The notes under the pieces are model-generated. The model searched no databases and had not been told where the DNA came from. It was given only the letters and a program-made list of their open reading frames with translations. This document shows positions 45,649 through 54,682 of a stretch of 64,000 nucleotides of DNA, piece by piece. The stretch covers positions 672,001 through 736,000 of the forward strand of contig CM000430.1 of the NCBI GenBank assembly GCA_000165345.1, written 5' to 3'. The position numbers and the translations under genes are program-made. The first letter of the stretch is position 1, and each line of letters begins with the position of its first letter.

Positions 45649-48600
45649 ATGGACTCTACAGCAGAAGTTTATTCTTTACCCCAACTACAAGACAGGATAA
45701 AGAGGGATCCAGGGGCTTATTTATCAGATTTTGAGCTACAATTACAGCATTTTTATTCAACATTGGATGTATTTAGATTAAATCCGCAAAATATTCCCAA
45801 AGAAATATTTCAGTTAATGATATTTATTGCTCAGACTTGCCCATATTACTATAAATATGGAGTATGTAACAAGTTTATTGAGAAACTTCTTGATGAATTA
45901 AAGAATAACTCTAGTTTAATGACTTCAGATATGCGAGTTTCAATGGCAACTTCATTAATTTTACTTTCAAATCAAAAAATTATTGACATTGTATATTTAT
46001 TGCCTCTATGGTTTGATTTAATGCGTCTTCCTGATAAAATTTTAAGATCAAAGTTATTGAAACATATAGTTTCAAGTATAGTCAATGCCAATATCAAGAA
46101 AACTGGTAAGAAAACGAGCGCAAAGAACAGGTCAAAGAGTATATTAAAGAGTAAACAAATTGGTACATCATTTTCAATTTCAGAAACAACATTTAGTTAC
46201 TTCGGCGAAACTGGGAATGATAACACTTCAGATCAAACTCTAAAACAATTAAAAAGTTATAATATATCTATGGGATATGACTTGAAAAAATTTAATTCTA
46301 CAGTCATGTCATTTTTAAGAGAAAGAATTGCAGATCCAAAAGATGTTTTACGTTCAATGGCTATTATTATTGATGTTTATAGGCAACATGTTTGGAATGA
46401 TGCTCAAGCTGTGAATATTATAGCTAAGTGTTGTGTGGGTTCAACTTCACCAAAAGTAGCTTCAACTGCAGCGAGATTTCTTTTGGGAAGGAATTGTTCA
46501 ATGGAAGAATTGGAGAATGATATAGAAGATGAAGATGAAAAGAGAGAATTGGCAGCAGAAGCAGCAAAGGCTATGAAATCTGCTTTAATCGGAATCAGTT
46601 CTAATAGTAAAAAGAAGAAAATGGAAAAGGCTAAGCAAGCAATGAAGAAATTGGAAAAACAAAAAAAGAATAAGACTGAAAACAACTCTTTAATTAAAAG
46701 TAACCAATGTATTGATTTAATACATTGTCCACAAGAATTTGCAGAAGAATTATTCCATAGAGTTGCTTCACATACTGATCCTTTTGAGGTTAGAATGACA
46801 CTTATTGGTCTTATTTCTCGTTTAATTGAACGTCATCGTCTGATTCTTATCAATTACTATTCATATCTTGGCAGATATTTATCTCCAAATAATAAAAATG
46901 TTACAAATGTTTTGGCTTTTTTGGCACAAGCTTGTCACGAATTAATACCTCCACAAGAACTTTCTTCAACTATCAAGTTACTTATGGATAATTTTGTTAA
47001 TGAATGTTGTAGGCCTGAAGTTATTGTGGTTGGTTTGAATACTATTCGAGAAATTTGTCAGAGAGTACCTTTGGTTATGGATAAGGATAAGCTCTTGGAT
47101 TTGGCTAACTTTAGAAAGATGAATGATAAAGGAGTATCAATCGCAGCAAAGAGTTTGGTTAATCTCTATAGGGAAATTATGCCAAGTATGCTTCATCGTT
47201 CTTTAATGAGCAAGGATGCTGCAATGAATATGAAGGATGAGAATCAAGATGAAAATAGTTTTGCTTATGGTTATAAAAAGATTGATCAAACTATTTCTGG
47301 AGCTGATTTGCTTATTAAGTATAATAATAGGAAGAATAAATCAAAGAAAGATACTGAGTCTGAATCTTGCCAATCTGTTGAAGATTATGATTACCAAGTG
47401 GATCAAGATACCGATCATGACCATGATGATGATGATGTAGATGGCATTGATCTTGAGGAAATTGATGAATTAAGTCAAGTTGATATGGAAGAACTCGCCT
47501 CTTCTAATGAAGATGATTTTGAGGACTCTGATGAATCAGATATTGGCTCTGATATTGAAGATTCTACTTCAATTAAGGTTTCCAAGTCTCCAGAAAATAT
47601 AATGGAAAGTAATAATATAGTTTTTGATAAGATTTTAGATCAGGATGACTTCAAATTGATTAAAAAACTTAAAACAAGAGTAGAAGCAGCAAAGGCTGTT
47701 GGAGCATCTAAAGGTCCGAAAAATGAGCAGTTAGACTTTTCTACAGCATCATCAGATGAAGGTTTTGGTTCAGGAATTAGTGAAGAGGATAATACTTCAG
47801 AAAGTGAAAGTGAAAATGATTCAGACTCTAATGATTCCACAGATTACGATATTAGTAGAGATATTAGAGATGAGATTACTCGTAACATGGGTAGAAAGAA
47901 GTTGAGTAAACAACAAAGGGTTCAATCTATTATGAAGGGAAGGCAGGACAGAGAGACATTTAAAGAAAGGAGAATTAGAGGTAAGTTTTTCTTGATTCTT
48001 ATGGTCCAATTGTTTTGTTTTTTTTTTTTGTGCATGTGGTTCAGTTATTTATAAGGAATTCAGAGAAGAATTTAAAGCAAATAGTCTTTATTTCTTTCTT
48101 TTTCCTCCTCCAAACAATTGAGTGGATAAAGTAAATTATGGCATGCAAAGCCGGCTAGTTACTACATCTATTAGTTACTAGTGACTATGTAAAAGGTTGT
48201 TGAGTCTAATGCCAAAGTAATTCGTTATTTGAATAGTTGATCAATTCTATCACTAGAAACTTTTATGTGGTTAGAGACATTCAATATATCAAGTACAAAC
48301 TTTTAATAATTATCCACAATCTAAAAAAAATTCATCTAAATGGTTTGGAGGAGTAAAAAGGGCTTATTTAGATATTAACAATAAATTTCAAACTCATGCA
48401 CTAAACTTTTAAAAGAGAAAAAAAAACCACAAAACTCTTGGAACACTTTAAAAATTAACAAACTTGTAAACAAACTTTACTTTATTTTTTTCATTTTACA
48501 GAATCTTTGAGTAAGAAACAAAGTATTCCAAATGAAGTCAAATCAAGAAATAAACCAATGATGATGGTAGTTAAGAAGAGAGGTATCAATAAGAAAAATG

Positions 48601-48695
48601 AAACAGCAAATATGAAATTGAGTAGGATCAAAAAACATCTTCGAAATTTGAAGAAGGATACTGGAAAAAAGAAAAGATTCAGAAAGAGGTAAATT
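45649..48695 (+). CDS. SDA1 ribosome-biogenesis/nuclear export protein homolog, predicted 2 exons
   Basis: The N-terminus SLPQLQDRIKRDPGAYLSDFELQLQHFYSTLDVFRLNP...FQLMIFIAQTCPYY is SDA1-like, and there is an acidic C-terminal region. Exon 1 is 45649..47980 with a GTAAGT donor at 47981. The only frame-compatible acceptor is TTTTACAG at 48500-48501. Exon 2 is 48502..48695 and encodes the SDA1-like basic tail ...NKPMMMVVKKRG...KKRFRKR*. The intron is 521 nt. Confidence 0.6.
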
Positions 48696-48882: not shown

Positions 48883-51800
48883 TCAGCCTTTTTTCTTTAT
48901 TCTATACAATTTTGGAAGGTCAAGATAATGCTCTTTAATTATTGATAATGAGCTTCTTGGATATATGTTGAATTTCTTATTTAGTATTGAGGAATACTGT
49001 TGGTACTTTATTCTATAAGATATAAAGAAATCATCAATTCCAAGTGATTTATAACGTGAATTAAGGCAAGTAATAATTGAATCATACACAGCACATTTAA
49101 TTAGCAAATTCCATTGGTATTTATTAGGAAGTTGCTTTTTATACGAATAAATATTGTAGCAACATGCGTTTGAAATCCACTCCAAAACTTTGACTAAGAA
49201 TCTGGGATTAATAAACCCTTGGTGTATTTTCTTAATTCTTTTAAAGGTTGAAAGCAGTTTTAGTATACCAATATATACAACAATCACTATATTTGTGTAA
49301 ATCTATATGATAAAGAAAAGAATTTTCATAATAAACAAGAATGAAAATTAATTAATTAATTAATTGGTTGGTTATTTGTTGAATTATATTTAAAACTTAC
49401 CGTAAATAAAGAATTGATTTTACAATCATATAGCAATCCATTCTTGATTCTAAAATCAAAGTATCTTATTAATTTTATACCCAAAACAGACCACATATAA
49501 TTTGACTTTTGAAGGTTTTCAGATATCGTCGTCGACTTAAACCTGTGAAAATTTGAATAATTACTTGTAAATTGGTGCTTAGTTGTCAAGGTTACAGTAT
49601 CCATAACACATATGAATTCCAAATTCTTCCATGGGGAAACCATGCAATTCAAATAGCTGTACTCACTGGAAAACTTCATTCCTGTCCATGATACTTGTTT
49701 ATGGAACTGTTTTAAGGCTATCTTAGCCTTGTTAATCATTTCTTTTTCATTTTGGCAGTCCTTTTCACTTTTGTTGGTATTTATTCTCTTTTCCACTGGA
49801 CTGCTTGTGCACTCTGTCGAAGGTGGGAAGGAAGAAGAGGACGATGAGGAAGACGACGAAGAAGATGAAGAGGAAGATGAAGAGGAACAAGATGATGAAC
49901 AGGAAGAGGAAGGCGAAGATAGTAAAACATCATCCTCCTCAAGGATGATGATCTCATTATTGTGGTCAATCCAAGGAAAGTTAGAGTTGATTTTGTCCTT
50001 GGAAACGTTCGATCCCCATAGTTTTTGTATATAAAGTAACTTTAAGAACTTTTTGGCGGACTCCAAATCGGATGTGAGAAAAAGAAAATCGTCTACCCAT
50101 CTCAATAAGAGACTTTCTTGCTTATTGCTCTGAGAAGGACTTTCTTGATCATAACTTTTGAGATTGGCACGGATTTGGCAATTCTGGTTGTTGATATTAT
50201 TATTAAACTCTTCGGAAGGTTGCAGTAAAACACTTTTAGCATTAATATTATATTCTGATATTTCTAGTCTTCTTTTTTTACTTGTACTAGTATTATAAAT
50301 ATTTATCTCATTTTCTTTAAATTCTGGGTAACGGGATAATCCTGTCTCAAGATCATGTTGTGAAAATAAGTCTTTTTCAGTTGGATCAAGTAATTGTACT
50401 TTTTCTTGTTTAATTGGATTCAGAAATGATAAAGAAATGTAAGAGGAGGAAAAAAATGAATGTCCCAAAAGATTCTGGATTTCTGGATTTAGATCTAAGA
50501 AATTATAATAGAGACAACAAAGAATGTAAGAAATACTTGATCCTTGTGGAATTCCAAAATCTTGCTTAAATAAGCTTAGAAATCTTTTTCCAAATTTGAT
50601 AGAATTTCCAAGTTGTTTAGATTTTATTAGTCTTAAAGACTTTGAACATGTCCTAAGTCGAAAAAAGCTTGTGTTAAGGTGGATCTTAATGATCTCCTTG
50701 ACTAATTTCCAGTTTATCACACGTCTTGAATTTAAAAAAGTAAAGATTTCTGCTTTTTTTTGTCCCAAAATACTCAAATCCTTGTTTGATAAACAAGAAT
50801 TTTTAAGATTCCAAAGAAGTTCATCTAAATCTGGTCCTATAATCCTCTTAATTTTTGATTTGACGACTTTTTGATCTTCATCATGATCTTTCTCAAAAAT
50901 AGGTACCATATTTAGTTTTCCTTTTGAAGTAATAATACATGATCTCCCAAGCTCATCTTGGTAAGAGTCTCTATTCATATTATCAAAAGGCGGAATAATT
51001 GTTGTTTTACTTAAAGCCCTTGAATATAAGCTCAAAAGGGAAATTTCATTTGGAAGAGAAATTACATCCAAAAACTCAAAAATCTTGGACTTATTTATAT
51101 TTTCAAAACAGTTCACTAAATCTGCTTTAATAATATAAATCTTTACATGGGACATTTTTTTACCTTGATTTTGATAAAAATCTTCATTCATTTGAAATTG
51201 TTGTTTGTCTCTTCTATTCTTTATCCACCAATTCTTTATAATCTTATAAATATCTCCAAACTGTACAAGAGAAGCACCAAGATGATTCTTTCCTGTCATT
51301 CTTAATAGAAAAGATCTTAAAATCTTGGAAGGATAAAACAACATATTATTTGTTGATGGACGTCTTATATCTATAATTCTATTACTTGAAGGACGTCTCA
51401 TTACCTTATTAATTGGAGTAGTAGGTACCGATGATCCTGAATTTATTCCAATTCCTATATTATAATTACCAAATCCTAATCCCACTCCTAATCTTCCTGG
51501 TGGTGTCATAATCTGACAATTTTGGCTTGAAAATGATGTAAAATTCTTTCCTCCTATATTATTAATATGACCATAATTATGATTATTTCCTACAATACCG
51601 TTATTACCATTACTATTAAAGTAGTTATAATAGTAATTGTTATTAATCCAACTTGTTGGAAGATCTCCACCAGTCCAAACTGAATTACAATCACAAAAAC
51701 CAATCTTCTTCTTTTCTTCACAAGTGTGATCTCTTTCAAGATTTTGTTGAAGAATTTGTCCAGATCCAACTTTTGATAAATTTATTAATGGTCTTAAACC

Positions 51801-53780
51801 TTTAGATTTCGGTACCCATCTTATTTTTGGGATATTTTCAGAAAACTCAGAGTTCTTATCAATTAATTTTGAAATTTCTTGAATTGAAGATAAATTCATT
51901 ATATAGTCTTTTGACTGAATTCCTTTTAATATACTTTCTAGATACCATTTATCAGCTTGTCTCACGATCTTTATCCAAACTGGATGTCTAAAATATCTTA
52001 CTTTATTACTACCCTCAATTTCTGTTGCATAGAAATGTCTTCTTAATATTGGAAATACCAAATATACTATTAAAAAATAAATGTTCCTAGCTAGATATGT
52101 TTTTCCAAGGCTAATTAAACTTTTTTTAATACTAGATCTTGTCTTATTATTCGGTACCTTTTTAGATCTTTGATTAGAATTAATTAAATTTTTTGATTCT
52201 TTAATAAATTGATAACTTTTTTCTTCAAGTATTCTATTTACCCAATTTGAAACCTCAATTCCATTCATTGCATGTTGAATCTTAAAAGTTTCTCTAATAT
52301 GAAGATTCACAATTATTGGGATCTTTTTATTAATAAAAGTCTTAAAGTTTTTAAAGGTACCAAGTATATTCTTTGGTAATACTTTAATCAAGTATAATCT
52401 TAAAAAATTTACTACTCTAGTAGAACTTGTTTCAAAACAAGGAATAGGTAATTTATTGAAGTTTTGTAAATCTGAATCTTTAATTGGTTCTATTGGACAT
52501 ATTTGATCTAGAAAGTTAACTGGAGACGTATTTCTAATATTTAACAATAAATTTTGGAATTCTTCCATCATAGCAGAAGCCAATTTACATTTAACACGGG
52601 AGAATTTTGTCATTTCATAACTTCCAAGTAATCCAATCAAACTTTGTCTGTTGTGATCTTTGAATATATGATCAGTTTGAATAATAAATCTAAGTAGTGT
52701 TCTTGCTCCTAATAAATTTGGAGGTAAAAGTCTTAGAACAGATAAACAAGGAAGACCTCCTCTTTTTGAGAAATGATCACAATAAAGAAATGTTGAGCGA
52801 TATGGAATATCAATTTTGTAGATTTTAGAAAGTCTTGAATCTTTAATAATTCCTCCTGATCTTTTGTTTACTTGTCTTGGAGTTTCATCTAAAGGCTTAA
52901 CTTCTTCTTTTTCCTCAATTGTAAGAATTGGAGTTAAAGAAGATGATGATACAAATGAATTGGTCTTTTTTGGCCCTGTCTCATAAAGTCTAGCAAGCTC
53001 TTCCAGGAAGTCATTAGTTAACATTCTACCAGCTTGTTGAATGAGAATTTCAGAGTGATCACCAAGTATTCTAAAGATAATACAGCAAACAAATAAGAAG
53101 AGAATCTCAATAGGACCTATTTTGGAAAGAAGAGTATTCCAAGCATGGAGGTTTTGAAACTTGTATAAAGTAGAATTACAGAATGAGTATTTCTTGGGCT
53201 TTATAGTGTCGAAGCTAGTTCTTAATCCTGAATAACTCCCTGAATGAAAGATCCTAATCCTTGGAAAGTGCTTACGGAGTAGGAGCTCAAAGTCTTGTAC
53301 TTGATAGGTCAGAGAATCCTTTTCAGAATCTGGAATTATATTCTTAATTTGGTCTGTAATAAAGGAAGGAGACAATGTCTCATTATATTCGGTATTTCTT
53401 GACCTCTTTCCTGAAGACATAGACGACTGATTTCTAGGTGAGCTAAAGTAGTTCTGACCTAGTATCGATGACCACTCGAGCAATTTTTCGATATTTATAC
53501 CCAACAACTTCCTCCTGTCTCCGTTAATATCAAGACTATTGTCTAAGGAATTAAATGTAAGTTCCCTTAAGCCAAGAAATCCCTCCTTTAAAGCTTTTGG
53601 TATAGAAGGATCTTCCAGTATCAAAGTCTCTTCAAGTAGCCTCCTTAACTCCCCTGAGGAATCATTGTACAATCCTTCTTCTTTGAATACTCTAATCTTT
53701 CTTTTCTGCTCCAGGTACTCTCCCAGCGTCAGAACCTCTTGCTTCATCAACACTGCTAAAGCACCCTTCAACACACTCAT
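48883..53780 (-). CDS. TERT: telomerase reverse transcriptase (TERT), predicted 2 exons
   Basis: The RT motifs present are a T-motif-like YATEIEG, motif B' FGIPQGSSISYILCCLYY, motif C LLRWVDDFLFLT, and a motif-E-like FPWIDH. The N-terminal region is long and there is a Ser-rich insertion. Exon 1 is 53780..49401. I propose a phase-0 GTAAGT donor at 49400 and a CATATAG acceptor at 49304-49303. Exon 2 is 49302..48883 and would add a 139-aa C-terminal extension. Confidence 0.75.
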
Positions 53781-53836
53781 CCTCTGTATTCATTATCGTC
53801 ATGTAATTACTTTTTGTTCACGACTTACTATTAAAG

Positions 53837-53858
53837 TGGCGGGAAAGGTGCGCGCCAT
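53837..53858. promoter_or_regulatory. E2F-like GTGGCGGGAAAGGTGCGCGCCA about 60-80 bp upstream of TERT start codon
   Basis: Two E2F-type cores lie immediately upstream of a replication-linked gene. A further TTTTGGCGCCAA is at 54269-54280 in the same divergent region. Confidence 0.4.
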
Positions 53859-54596: not shown

Positions 54597-54660
<64 letters not shown>

Positions 54661-54682
54661 ATATATGTACAAATAGAGTAAT

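Follow-up and report, generated by a model that had tools for sequence, protein, structure and literature searches.

The locus examined here is, with high confidence, a single-copy, two-exon telomerase reverse transcriptase (TERT) gene of Cryptosporidium, with a 98-nt phase-0 intron in the thumb-coding region, a serine expansion and a probable E2F/DP-type element upstream. It lies in a 64,000-nucleotide stretch of contig CM000430.1 (positions 672,001 to 736,000; hereafter, the window) from a Cryptosporidium species of the C. parvum/C. hominis group, and the gene is an ordinary Cryptosporidium TERT that is already known. Splicing after Thr1460 would join 1,460 to 139 codons and yield a TERT with a complete helical thumb, while the unspliced 1474-aa form would stop 14 codons into the intron, without most of the thumb. 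The TERT thumb is needed for primer/template binding and processivity. The main value of the finding is for annotation, in that the deposited models of the matching assembly and of five species lose ~139 thumb residues; we advise using the spliced 1599-aa form for modelling, expressing or targeting Cryptosporidium telomerase.

Table 1. Positions of the features described in the text, in window coordinates.
Feature	Position	Strand	Basis or remark
TERT exon 1 (codons 1-1460)	49401..53780	-	ORF, Pfam Telomerase_RBD and human TERT collinearity
Telomerase RNA-binding domain (TRBD), residues 455-609	51954..52418	-	PF12009 and alignment to human TERT 538-646
T motif FYATEIEG, residues 583-590	52011-52034	-	within TRBD
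RT motif C LLRWVDDFLFLT, residues 1225-1236, catalytic Asp-Asp	50073..50108	-	aligns to human LLLRLVDDFLLVT
Ser-rich low-complexity tract, residues 1288-1317	49830..49919	-	linker between motifs D and E
Predicted spliceosomal intron, 98 nt, phase 0, GTAAGT...CATATAG	49303..49400	-	position kept in 9 species
TERT exon 2, 139 codons + TGA, rest of thumb helices	48883..49302	-	
E2F/DP-like GC box pair, -77 to -58 from ATG	53838..53857	-	positional conservation
First box TGGCGCGC	53857-53850	-	-77 to -70 from ATG
Second box TTTCCCGCC	53846-53838	-	-66 to -58 from ATG

Gene identity and domain layout

The minus-strand open reading frame at 49356..53780 begins with ATG and encodes 1474 aa. Exon 1 takes in the N-terminal region, the TRBD and reverse transcriptase (RT) motifs T, 1, 2, A, B', C, D and E, and ends 98 residues past the start of motif E. 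We assigned the gene to TERT because its product matches the Pfam family Telomerase_RBD (PF12009; E=3.5e-20, 72.9 bits against a cut-off of 25, residues 455-609), because human TERT is the sole PDB sequence matched at E<=1e-3 and because the orthologs retrieved by homology search carry the name TERT. The human alignment consists of four collinear stretches, running in order through motifs T/1/2, B', C/D and the C-terminal extension. The TRBD precedes the RT domain, whose motifs 1, 2, A, B', C, D and E come in order, motif A contributing the catalytic Asp and motif C the Asp-Asp pair, and a helical C-terminal extension (the thumb) comes after motif E. An initial annotation of this DNA had read the gene as a TERT with T, B' and C motifs, and the TRBD match and human collinearity bear this out.

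Motif B' (FGIPQGS) occupies residues 1075-1081. Of 146 TERTs, 114 are matched by the region around motif A (IYIIKADLVNCFENI), with its Asp aligned and a best E of 2.4e-12. Across 9 Cryptosporidium species all RT motifs are invariant or nearly so, motif C being invariant. Pfam RVT_1 gave no match to the protein at E<=1. Residues 1-330 are conserved within the genus, and Lai et al. (PMC5405514) report that a clear GQ motif could not be identified in Cryptosporidium TERT. Judging from its sequence, the protein would be expected to have TERT enzyme activity.

The gene order UCH-TERT-SDA1 is common to nine Cryptosporidium orthologs. Neither the 1474-aa nor the 1599-aa protein was found by exact look-up in the protein collection, the homology search returned no protein of >89% identity to the spliced query, and our literature search found no paper devoted to Cryptosporidium TERT itself.

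The predicted 3' intron and the spliced thumb

The donor GTAAGT (49400-49395) directly follows the ACG codon of Thr1460, which places the intron in phase 0, and the AG of the acceptor CATATAG (49304-49303) is the first AG past the donor hexamer. Both sites had been proposed, with a phase-0 join, in the initial annotation, and both are present. The intron is 84% A+T, contains (AATT)5 and has stop codons in all three frames, the in-frame read-through stop lying at 49356-49358. It shows the canonical features of Cryptosporidium U2-type introns, namely GTAAGT, AG, short length, A+T richness, a conserved position and a restored frame; 84% of Cryptosporidium introns start with GTAAGT, and C. parvum introns have a median length of 61 nt and ~78% A+T, as read from a table (PMC2483917). 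GTAAGT is not rarer in the window than chance predicts (29 found, 23 expected), so what makes the intron significant is the conserved, open frame of 139 codons and not the hexamer. An alternative in-frame acceptor 15 nt downstream (AG at 49288-49287) would delete IYTNI and was rejected, since all species conserve this peptide, which is aligned to VCTNI in human TERT.

In 9 species, the donor GTAAGTT, the phase and the acceptor AG coincide at one codon boundary. The intron itself has diverged, ranging from 53 to 164 nt with sequences that are 55-81% alignable. Exon 2 keeps 83-96% nucleotide identity across the Cryptosporidium species without any indel, and third codon positions account for 59-66% of its differences, which is a coding pattern. 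For C. meleagridis, C. ubiquitum and C. canis, the deposited models already contain this splice. The models of five others (chipmunk genotype I, C. felis, C. xiaoi, C. ryanae and C. andersoni) and of GCA_031892065.1, the matching assembly, which is identical to the window, follow the unspliced, 1474-aa-type reading, most likely because gene prediction missed the intron. A corrected C. andersoni model would require one further intron, of 56 nt. Since splicing restores the last part of the enzyme, which is cut off in several public models, the 3' intron proposed in the initial annotation is almost certainly real as judged from these comparisons, and the transcript is predicted to be spliced at these sites. 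Logan contigs bearing the gene proved to be genomic, with breaks at its (TA)n and (AATT)n repeats.

In vertebrates and plants, TERT is regulated by alternative splicing. We considered whether regulated retention of the intron might produce a thumb-truncated, inactive or dominant-negative TERT, with splicing efficiency setting activity across life-cycle stages. Besides the vertebrate and plant precedents, such a role would fit the in-frame stop 14 codons into the intron and the persistence of the intron in an intron-poor genus, at a position common to Vitrella. However, every species has the optimal consensus donor GTAAGT(T), which suggests efficient constitutive splicing, and the intron sequence itself is not conserved; we regard regulated retention as unlikely. 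The more specific proposal, that an ancestral intron shared with Vitrella was kept because regulated retention toggles between an active full-thumb and a thumb-less TERT as replicative and non-replicative stages alternate, strikes us as equally improbable.

With the intron removed, the 139-aa extension that the initial annotation had joined in frame, for a protein of about 1599 aa, gives a computed product of exactly 1599 aa. When the spliced C-terminus was searched against all of the PDB, the top match was the human TERT thumb (5ugw), with the junction inside the alignment; at E=0.06-0.07 this match is marginal taken alone, and a profile brought no improvement (E=0.06 vs. 0.07 for the single sequence). 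Among TERTs that had been retrieved by their TRBD region only, the same profile matched 15 at E<0.01 (best 8.6e-12), compared with a best E of 0.1 for the reversed-sequence control, and all of its alignments cross position 98/99 gap-free. The proposed resemblance of the downstream frame to TERT C-termini was thus upheld. The spliced junction aligns gap-free to the thumbs of human, Babesia, Vitrella and other TERTs. Exon 2 alone gave only four matches at E<0.005 in the 146-TERT set, and it matched no family in Pfam. A structure model of the C-terminus from C. meleagridis (96% identity in exon 2) reached a mean pLDDT of only 57; the fold search aligned it to TERT thumbs over 134-175 residues, which is more than the confidently modelled part of exon 1. 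Foldseek against the PDB returned nothing at E<=0.001, with TERTs at ranks 3 and 22 only. In both homology and fold, the spliced C-terminus matches TERT thumbs.

It is highly improbable that there is no intron, with the 1474-aa read-through protein as the true product and the downstream 134/139-codon frame as a small gene of its own or an ORF that arose by chance. Annotation to the read-through stop in the matching assembly and five other species, and a GTAAGT count in the window that is not over-represented, speak for this reading. Against it, read-through would add short tails that bear no relation to one another across species (VSFKYNSTNNQPIN, VSLTN, VSYLWV, VSL and others), and exon 2 is kept in 9 of 9 species, always immediately past an AG. 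The spliced junction also restores an unbroken helix that can be aligned to the thumbs of other TERTs, and the thumb alignments from the fold search extend beyond the confidently modelled part of exon 1.

Serine tract, upstream boxes and the neighbouring gene

A poly-Ser insertion of about 30 residues had been placed past the RT motifs, ahead of the C-terminal extension. The tract is present (27 Ser, 2 Cys and 1 Pro in 30 residues), but it lies in the linker between motifs D and E and not after the RT motifs. Its Ser codons are all of the form TCN and vary in the third base. Uninterrupted Ser runs reach 19 residues in the window, 10 in C. meleagridis, 6 in the chipmunk genotype I and 0 in six other species; five contigs, having been selected through an exact protein match, are necessarily identical, Ser tract included. 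The tract is a lineage-specific low-complexity expansion in a variable loop between the two motifs.

Near upstream of the start codon lie TTTSSCGC/SGCGCS boxes that are conserved in orthologs. The arrangement GGCGCG-N(5-8)-CCCGCC stands at an unchanged position in the window, C. meleagridis, the chipmunk genotype I and C. ubiquitum, with partial retention in C. canis, C. felis and C. andersoni, so that the position of the footprint is conserved in 4-7 species. For the motif TTTCCCGC, found at 53839-53846, the window has 10 occurrences where 1.5 would be expected, a count reached in 0 of 100 shuffles. The pair is probably an E2F/DP-type promoter element, the commonest promoter motif of the genus, to which E2F would be predicted to bind. 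In C. parvum, about 2,379 genes have E2F-like motifs upstream; these genes are spread over 163 of 200 expression clusters and share no particular expression pattern (PMC3734150), and the presence of the motifs is therefore no evidence for S-phase control. Thus, of the initial reading, the two boxes stand, but the suggested fit to S-phase regulation is not specifically supported. As a conserved promoter feature, the box pair may interest specialists, as may the intron position common to Vitrella. A GTAAGT lying ~45 nt ahead of the ATG, at 53823-53828, was weighed as a possible donor of a 5'-UTR intron and rejected because it is unconserved in C. ubiquitum and in more distant species.

An intron of the neighbouring gene SDA1 contains a conserved RNA element at 48139-48214. 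Its candidacy as telomerase RNA was rejected for now because Rfam gave no match and a CCUAAA-type template was not seen, the telomere repeats being presumably TTTAGG.

Comparison with known telomerase reverse transcriptases

The closest known TERT is that of C. meleagridis (P0001, 1556 aa), named by NCBI 'Telomerase ribonucleoprotein complex - RNA binding domain protein', which covers 100% of the spliced query at 89% identity. Its deposited model splices at the identical boundary (...SSLFT/IYTNIV..., the slash marking the junction), and its gene stands in the same UCH-TERT-SDA1 order. It differs in having an intron of 89 nt vs. 98 nt and, besides the shorter Ser run, several shorter low-complexity inserts. 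The TERTs of C. ubiquitum (P0003) and C. canis (P0004) resemble that of C. meleagridis.

Identity to human TERT (PDB 7qxa, 7trd and 7bg9; thumb 5ugw) is very low, at 9-13% in the thumb, and Cryptosporidium TERT is ~470 residues longer, with inserts between motifs 2 and A, A and B', B' and C, and D and E. Piroplasm and coccidian TERTs share the TRBD plus RT architecture with Cryptosporidium, and those of Babesia caballi (P0036), B. bovis (P0094) and Besnoitia besnoiti (P0011) give the best thumb sequence matches (E=8.6e-12 to 1.7e-6). The B. caballi gene has zero introns; that of B. besnoiti has introns ~29 codons upstream and 38 codons downstream of the Cryptosporidium position, and none at the position itself.

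In contrast, the TERT of the chromerid Vitrella brassicaformis (CEM14175.1, P0013) has a phase-0 intron at the exactly homologous boundary (...NDWQT/ICRNVYF...), likewise following an ACG Thr codon, and its thumb aligns to the spliced Cryptosporidium thumb at E=1.7e-9. The Vitrella gene is many-introned, and its intron at the shared position is 81 nt long and G+C-rich, with the donor GTCAGG rather than GTAAGT. The common position suggests that the TERT 3' intron is ancient and has been retained in an intron-poor lineage.

TERT identity and a predicted 3' intron

The 1474-residue open reading frame (ORF), in an A+T-rich window (about 30% G+C) from a Cryptosporidium species, carries a Pfam telomerase RNA-binding domain (TRBD; E=3.5e-20). 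Among all PDB sequences, human TERT was the sole match at E<=1e-3 (E=1.1e-7), aligning in four collinear stretches that correspond to motifs T/1/2, B', C/D and the C-terminal extension, and the motif A region matched 114 of 146 TERTs that had been retrieved independently, with the catalytic Asp aligned and a best E of 2.4e-12. The closest database relative was the TERT of C. meleagridis (89% identity, 100% coverage), followed in the homology search by eight more Cryptosporidium orthologs. An identical ORF is carried by a 992-kb chromosome of assembly GCA_031892065.1, and the gene order UCH-TERT-SDA1 is common to all nine species. These domain, motif and ortholog matches bear out the TERT identity proposed in the initial annotation.

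Features of the TERT locus and its neighbors
Feature	Position	Strand	Remarks
SDA1 start	45643		convergent with TERT
SDA1 3' intron	47981-48501	plus	521 nt, phase 1, GTAAGT...TTTTACAG
SDA1-intron element	48139-48214	plus	about 76 nt
SDA1 exon 2	48502-48692		encodes ESLSKKQSIPNEVKSRNKPMMMVV...KKRFRKR*
TERT exon 2	48883-49302	minus	139 open codons; TGA 48885-48883
Acceptor CATATAG	AG 49304-49303	minus	first AG past the donor hexamer's own AG
TERT intron	49303-49400	minus	98 nt, 84% A+T
(AATT)5	49346-49365		within TERT intron
TERT ORF, unspliced	49356-53780	minus	1474 aa
Donor GTAAGT	49400-49395	minus	hexamer at codon boundary
TERT exon 1	49401-53780	minus
TRBD	residues 455-609
Ser tract	residues 1288-1317		SSPSSSCSSSC, then 19 Ser
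Region with conserved GACGATAA	53800-53830		near TERT start
E2F-like box TTTCCCGCC	53846-53838
E2F-like box TGGCGCGC	53857-53850
Palindromic E2F-like site TTTGGCGCCAA	54270-54280
(AT)34 microsatellite	54600-54666		UCH-TERT intergenic region
UCH start	54683		divergent from TERT

A phase-0 intron near the 3' end of the gene had also been predicted, and the coordinates assigned to the ORF, donor, acceptor and second exon were all correct. Exon 1 ends in the codons TCT TTA TTT ACG, followed by GTA AGT TTT, so that the donor falls directly after Thr1460; the intron has stops in all three frames, and joining the two exons yields a protein of 1599 aa. GTAAGT occurs 29 times in the window compared with 23 expected. 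Since the hexamer alone is thus unremarkable, we built the case for the intron on cross-species evidence and on homology to the thumb, the helical C-terminal extension of TERT.

We compared orthologous loci from the eight other species, mapping in every one where exon 1 stops and exon 2 begins. In nine of nine species, GTAAGTT directly follows a conserved Thr codon in phase 0, and a conserved frame, (I/V)Y(T/S/A/K)N..., begins directly after an AG. The intervening sequence measures 53, 70, 71, 72, 84, 89, 98, 109 or 164 nt and is only 55-81% alignable between species, with many gaps, and the read-through tails that an unspliced reading would carry into it are short and dissimilar from species to species. 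Among the four closest species, exon 2 contains no indels; its nucleotide identity is 83-96%, with 59-66% of the differences at third codon positions.

The spliced C-terminus found the isolated human TERT thumb (5ugw) as its top PDB match, at a marginal E=0.07 (0.06 with a nine-species profile), and the alignment passes unbroken over the splice junction (ydckinslft|iytnivivv versus LDLQVNSLQTVCTNIYKIL). A Foldseek search returned no significant match. For a TERT set independent of exon 2, a TRBD-only profile was run against 1.84 billion representative proteins, giving 691 matches at E<=1e-3; a profile of the spliced C-terminus was then run locally on 146 of the best 150, the other four being Cryptosporidium orthologs. 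It matched 15 of the 146 at E<0.01 (best 8.6e-12, Babesia caballi), while the best reversed-sequence control reached E=0.1. The top targets are TERTs by Pfam and by their source names. Profile position 98/99 was spanned gap-free in all 15 alignments, most of which stop 64-160 residues before the target C-terminus. A profile of exon 2 alone was weaker, with four matches at E<0.005 in the 146-TERT set versus 0.18 for the control. Together, splice sites kept in every species, a coding-like exon 2 and thumb homology running through the junction indicate that the intron is very probably spliced as proposed.

Serine tract and upstream DNA

The Ser-rich insertion reported initially is present, but it lies between motif D (...KDKINSNF) and motif E (VSWTGMKF) rather than after the RT motifs. 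It does not separate the RT domain from the thumb. Every Ser codon is of the TCN type, the third base varying, and only an imperfect 9-30-nt periodicity was detected by Tandem Repeats Finder. The spacing between motifs C and E is 127 residues in the window protein; C. meleagridis and chipmunk genotype I have 107-108, five other species 72-92 and C. andersoni 46. In 45 other TERTs the median, a rough estimate by regular expression, is about 62. The longest Ser run likewise falls from 19 to 10, 6 and 0 with growing phylogenetic distance. Because both shrink across species, the tract is a low-complexity expansion of recent origin, specific to this lineage and located in a variable surface loop.

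The two E2F-like boxes upstream of the ATG are likewise present and conserved in position, but the S-phase regulation read from them was not supported. TTTSSCGC occurs 10 times in the window, compared with 1.5 expected (0 of 100 shuffles as high). The arrangement GGCGCG-N(5-8)-CCCGCC is found at a constant position in the window and in C. meleagridis, chipmunk genotype I and C. ubiquitum, and C. canis, C. felis and C. andersoni retain part of it, amid upstream DNA that is otherwise divergent, so that the pair may reasonably be regarded as a phylogenetic footprint. However, the E2F-like motif is the commonest C. parvum upstream motif, found at 2,379 genes spread over 163 of 200 expression clusters without any particular pattern in time (PMC3734150), and the boxes are therefore little informative on S-phase control. 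The palindromic E2F-like site lies upstream of both genes, at a distance of about 490 bp from the TERT ATG and about 400 bp from UCH; seven species keep it, at -270 to -500. Nearer the TERT start, conservation of GACGATAA extends as far as C. xiaoi and C. ryanae; AAGCATGG is common to C. felis, C. xiaoi, C. ryanae and C. andersoni.

A structured element in the SDA1 3' intron

The neighboring SDA1 gene also has a 3' intron, whose length is high in every species (about 250-585 nt versus a genus median of 61 nt); spliced, SDA1 comprises about 841 aa, the size of the annotated C. meleagridis protein. Within this intron lies an element kept in nine of nine species, including C. andersoni. It consists of a terminal stem (UGGCAU/AUGCCA), the invariant stretch GCAAAGCCG, a hairpin of 11 bp and a GACU/AGUC stem whose 16-nt loop, AUGUAAAAGGUUGUUG, is likewise invariant. 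Covariation for this three-helix fold is strong, with compensatory double changes at seven pairs, and pairing holds in 96.8% of cells versus at most 49% when partners are slid (0 of 500 shuffles as high). G.U pairs place the structured element on the SDA1 sense strand. No Rfam match was found at E<=10, and inspection revealed neither obvious C/D or H/ACA boxes nor a telomere template. The element may represent a new small RNA hosted by the intron or a cis-regulatory structure and is probably more novel than the TERT finding.

Gene models across the genus and age of the intron

Neither the TERT gene nor its structure is of a new kind: C. meleagridis, C. ubiquitum and one C. canis assembly already have deposited models with the same splice. 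Conversely, a read-through tail (T-V-S...) closes the models of chipmunk genotype I, C. felis, C. xiaoi, C. ryanae and C. andersoni, and GCA_031892065.1, identical to the window, calls TERT as 1474 aa, yet annotates its SDA1 neighbor as spliced. The read-through models (GCA_031892065.1 and the five species; loci L001 and L006-L010) lack the last 134-160 or so thumb residues. Since the splice was deposited for some species and missed in others, the initial annotation rediscovered a structure that is correct but inconsistently annotated over the genus, and the practical gain is a corrected TERT model for the window genome and five others. We found no paper on Cryptosporidium TERT itself; the TERT motif survey of Lai et al. 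covers it (PMC5405514).

Other irregularities were observed among these models. That of chipmunk genotype I starts 11 codons late. Both C. canis TERTs (P0004 and P0005) bear the NCBI name of the neighboring gene, "SDA1-like protein"; P0004 is missing about 100 N-terminal residues, and P0005 joins the same donor further on (…NSTDT|VLDWISS…), skipping 38 conserved residues. The C. andersoni model P0009 (locus L006, 2501-6598) spans 4098 nt for 1337 aa, implying removal of 84 nt, and has ...ETSNTNMIIPRELFG... where all other species carry the conserved ...ETSSTKVVNFLRLYLIKVLPKNILG...; this internal intron in the TRBD may be spurious. C. andersoni also has a second TERT intron inside exon 2 (L006 6744-6799, from LRBS01000103.1; 56 nt, phase 1; GTAAGTT...TATTAG at ...INPKFVL(K)|IFEWIS...), absent from the eight other species, whose excision restores the conserved exon 2 frame. 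Logan short-read contigs with the TERT gene start and stop at the (AT)34 and (AATT)5 repeats.

The TERT intron conforms to the published Cryptosporidium pattern, in which 84% of introns start with GTAAGT and C. parvum introns have, as read from the table, a median of 61 nt and about 78% A+T (PMC2483917). Beyond the genus, Vitrella brassicaformis TERT (CEM14175.1) aligns gap-free with the Cryptosporidium thumb, and its gene (locus L015, 6205-6501, from CDMY01000455.1) has an 81-nt phase-0 intron, GTCAGG...CTGCAG, at the identical boundary (...NDWQT|ICRNVYF...). The TERT gene of Babesia caballi has no introns, and that of Besnoitia besnoiti has introns close by, none at the Cryptosporidium site. 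Cryptosporidium and Vitrella could conceivably have gained the intron in parallel; the simplest reading is an old intron kept in these two lineages and lost elsewhere.
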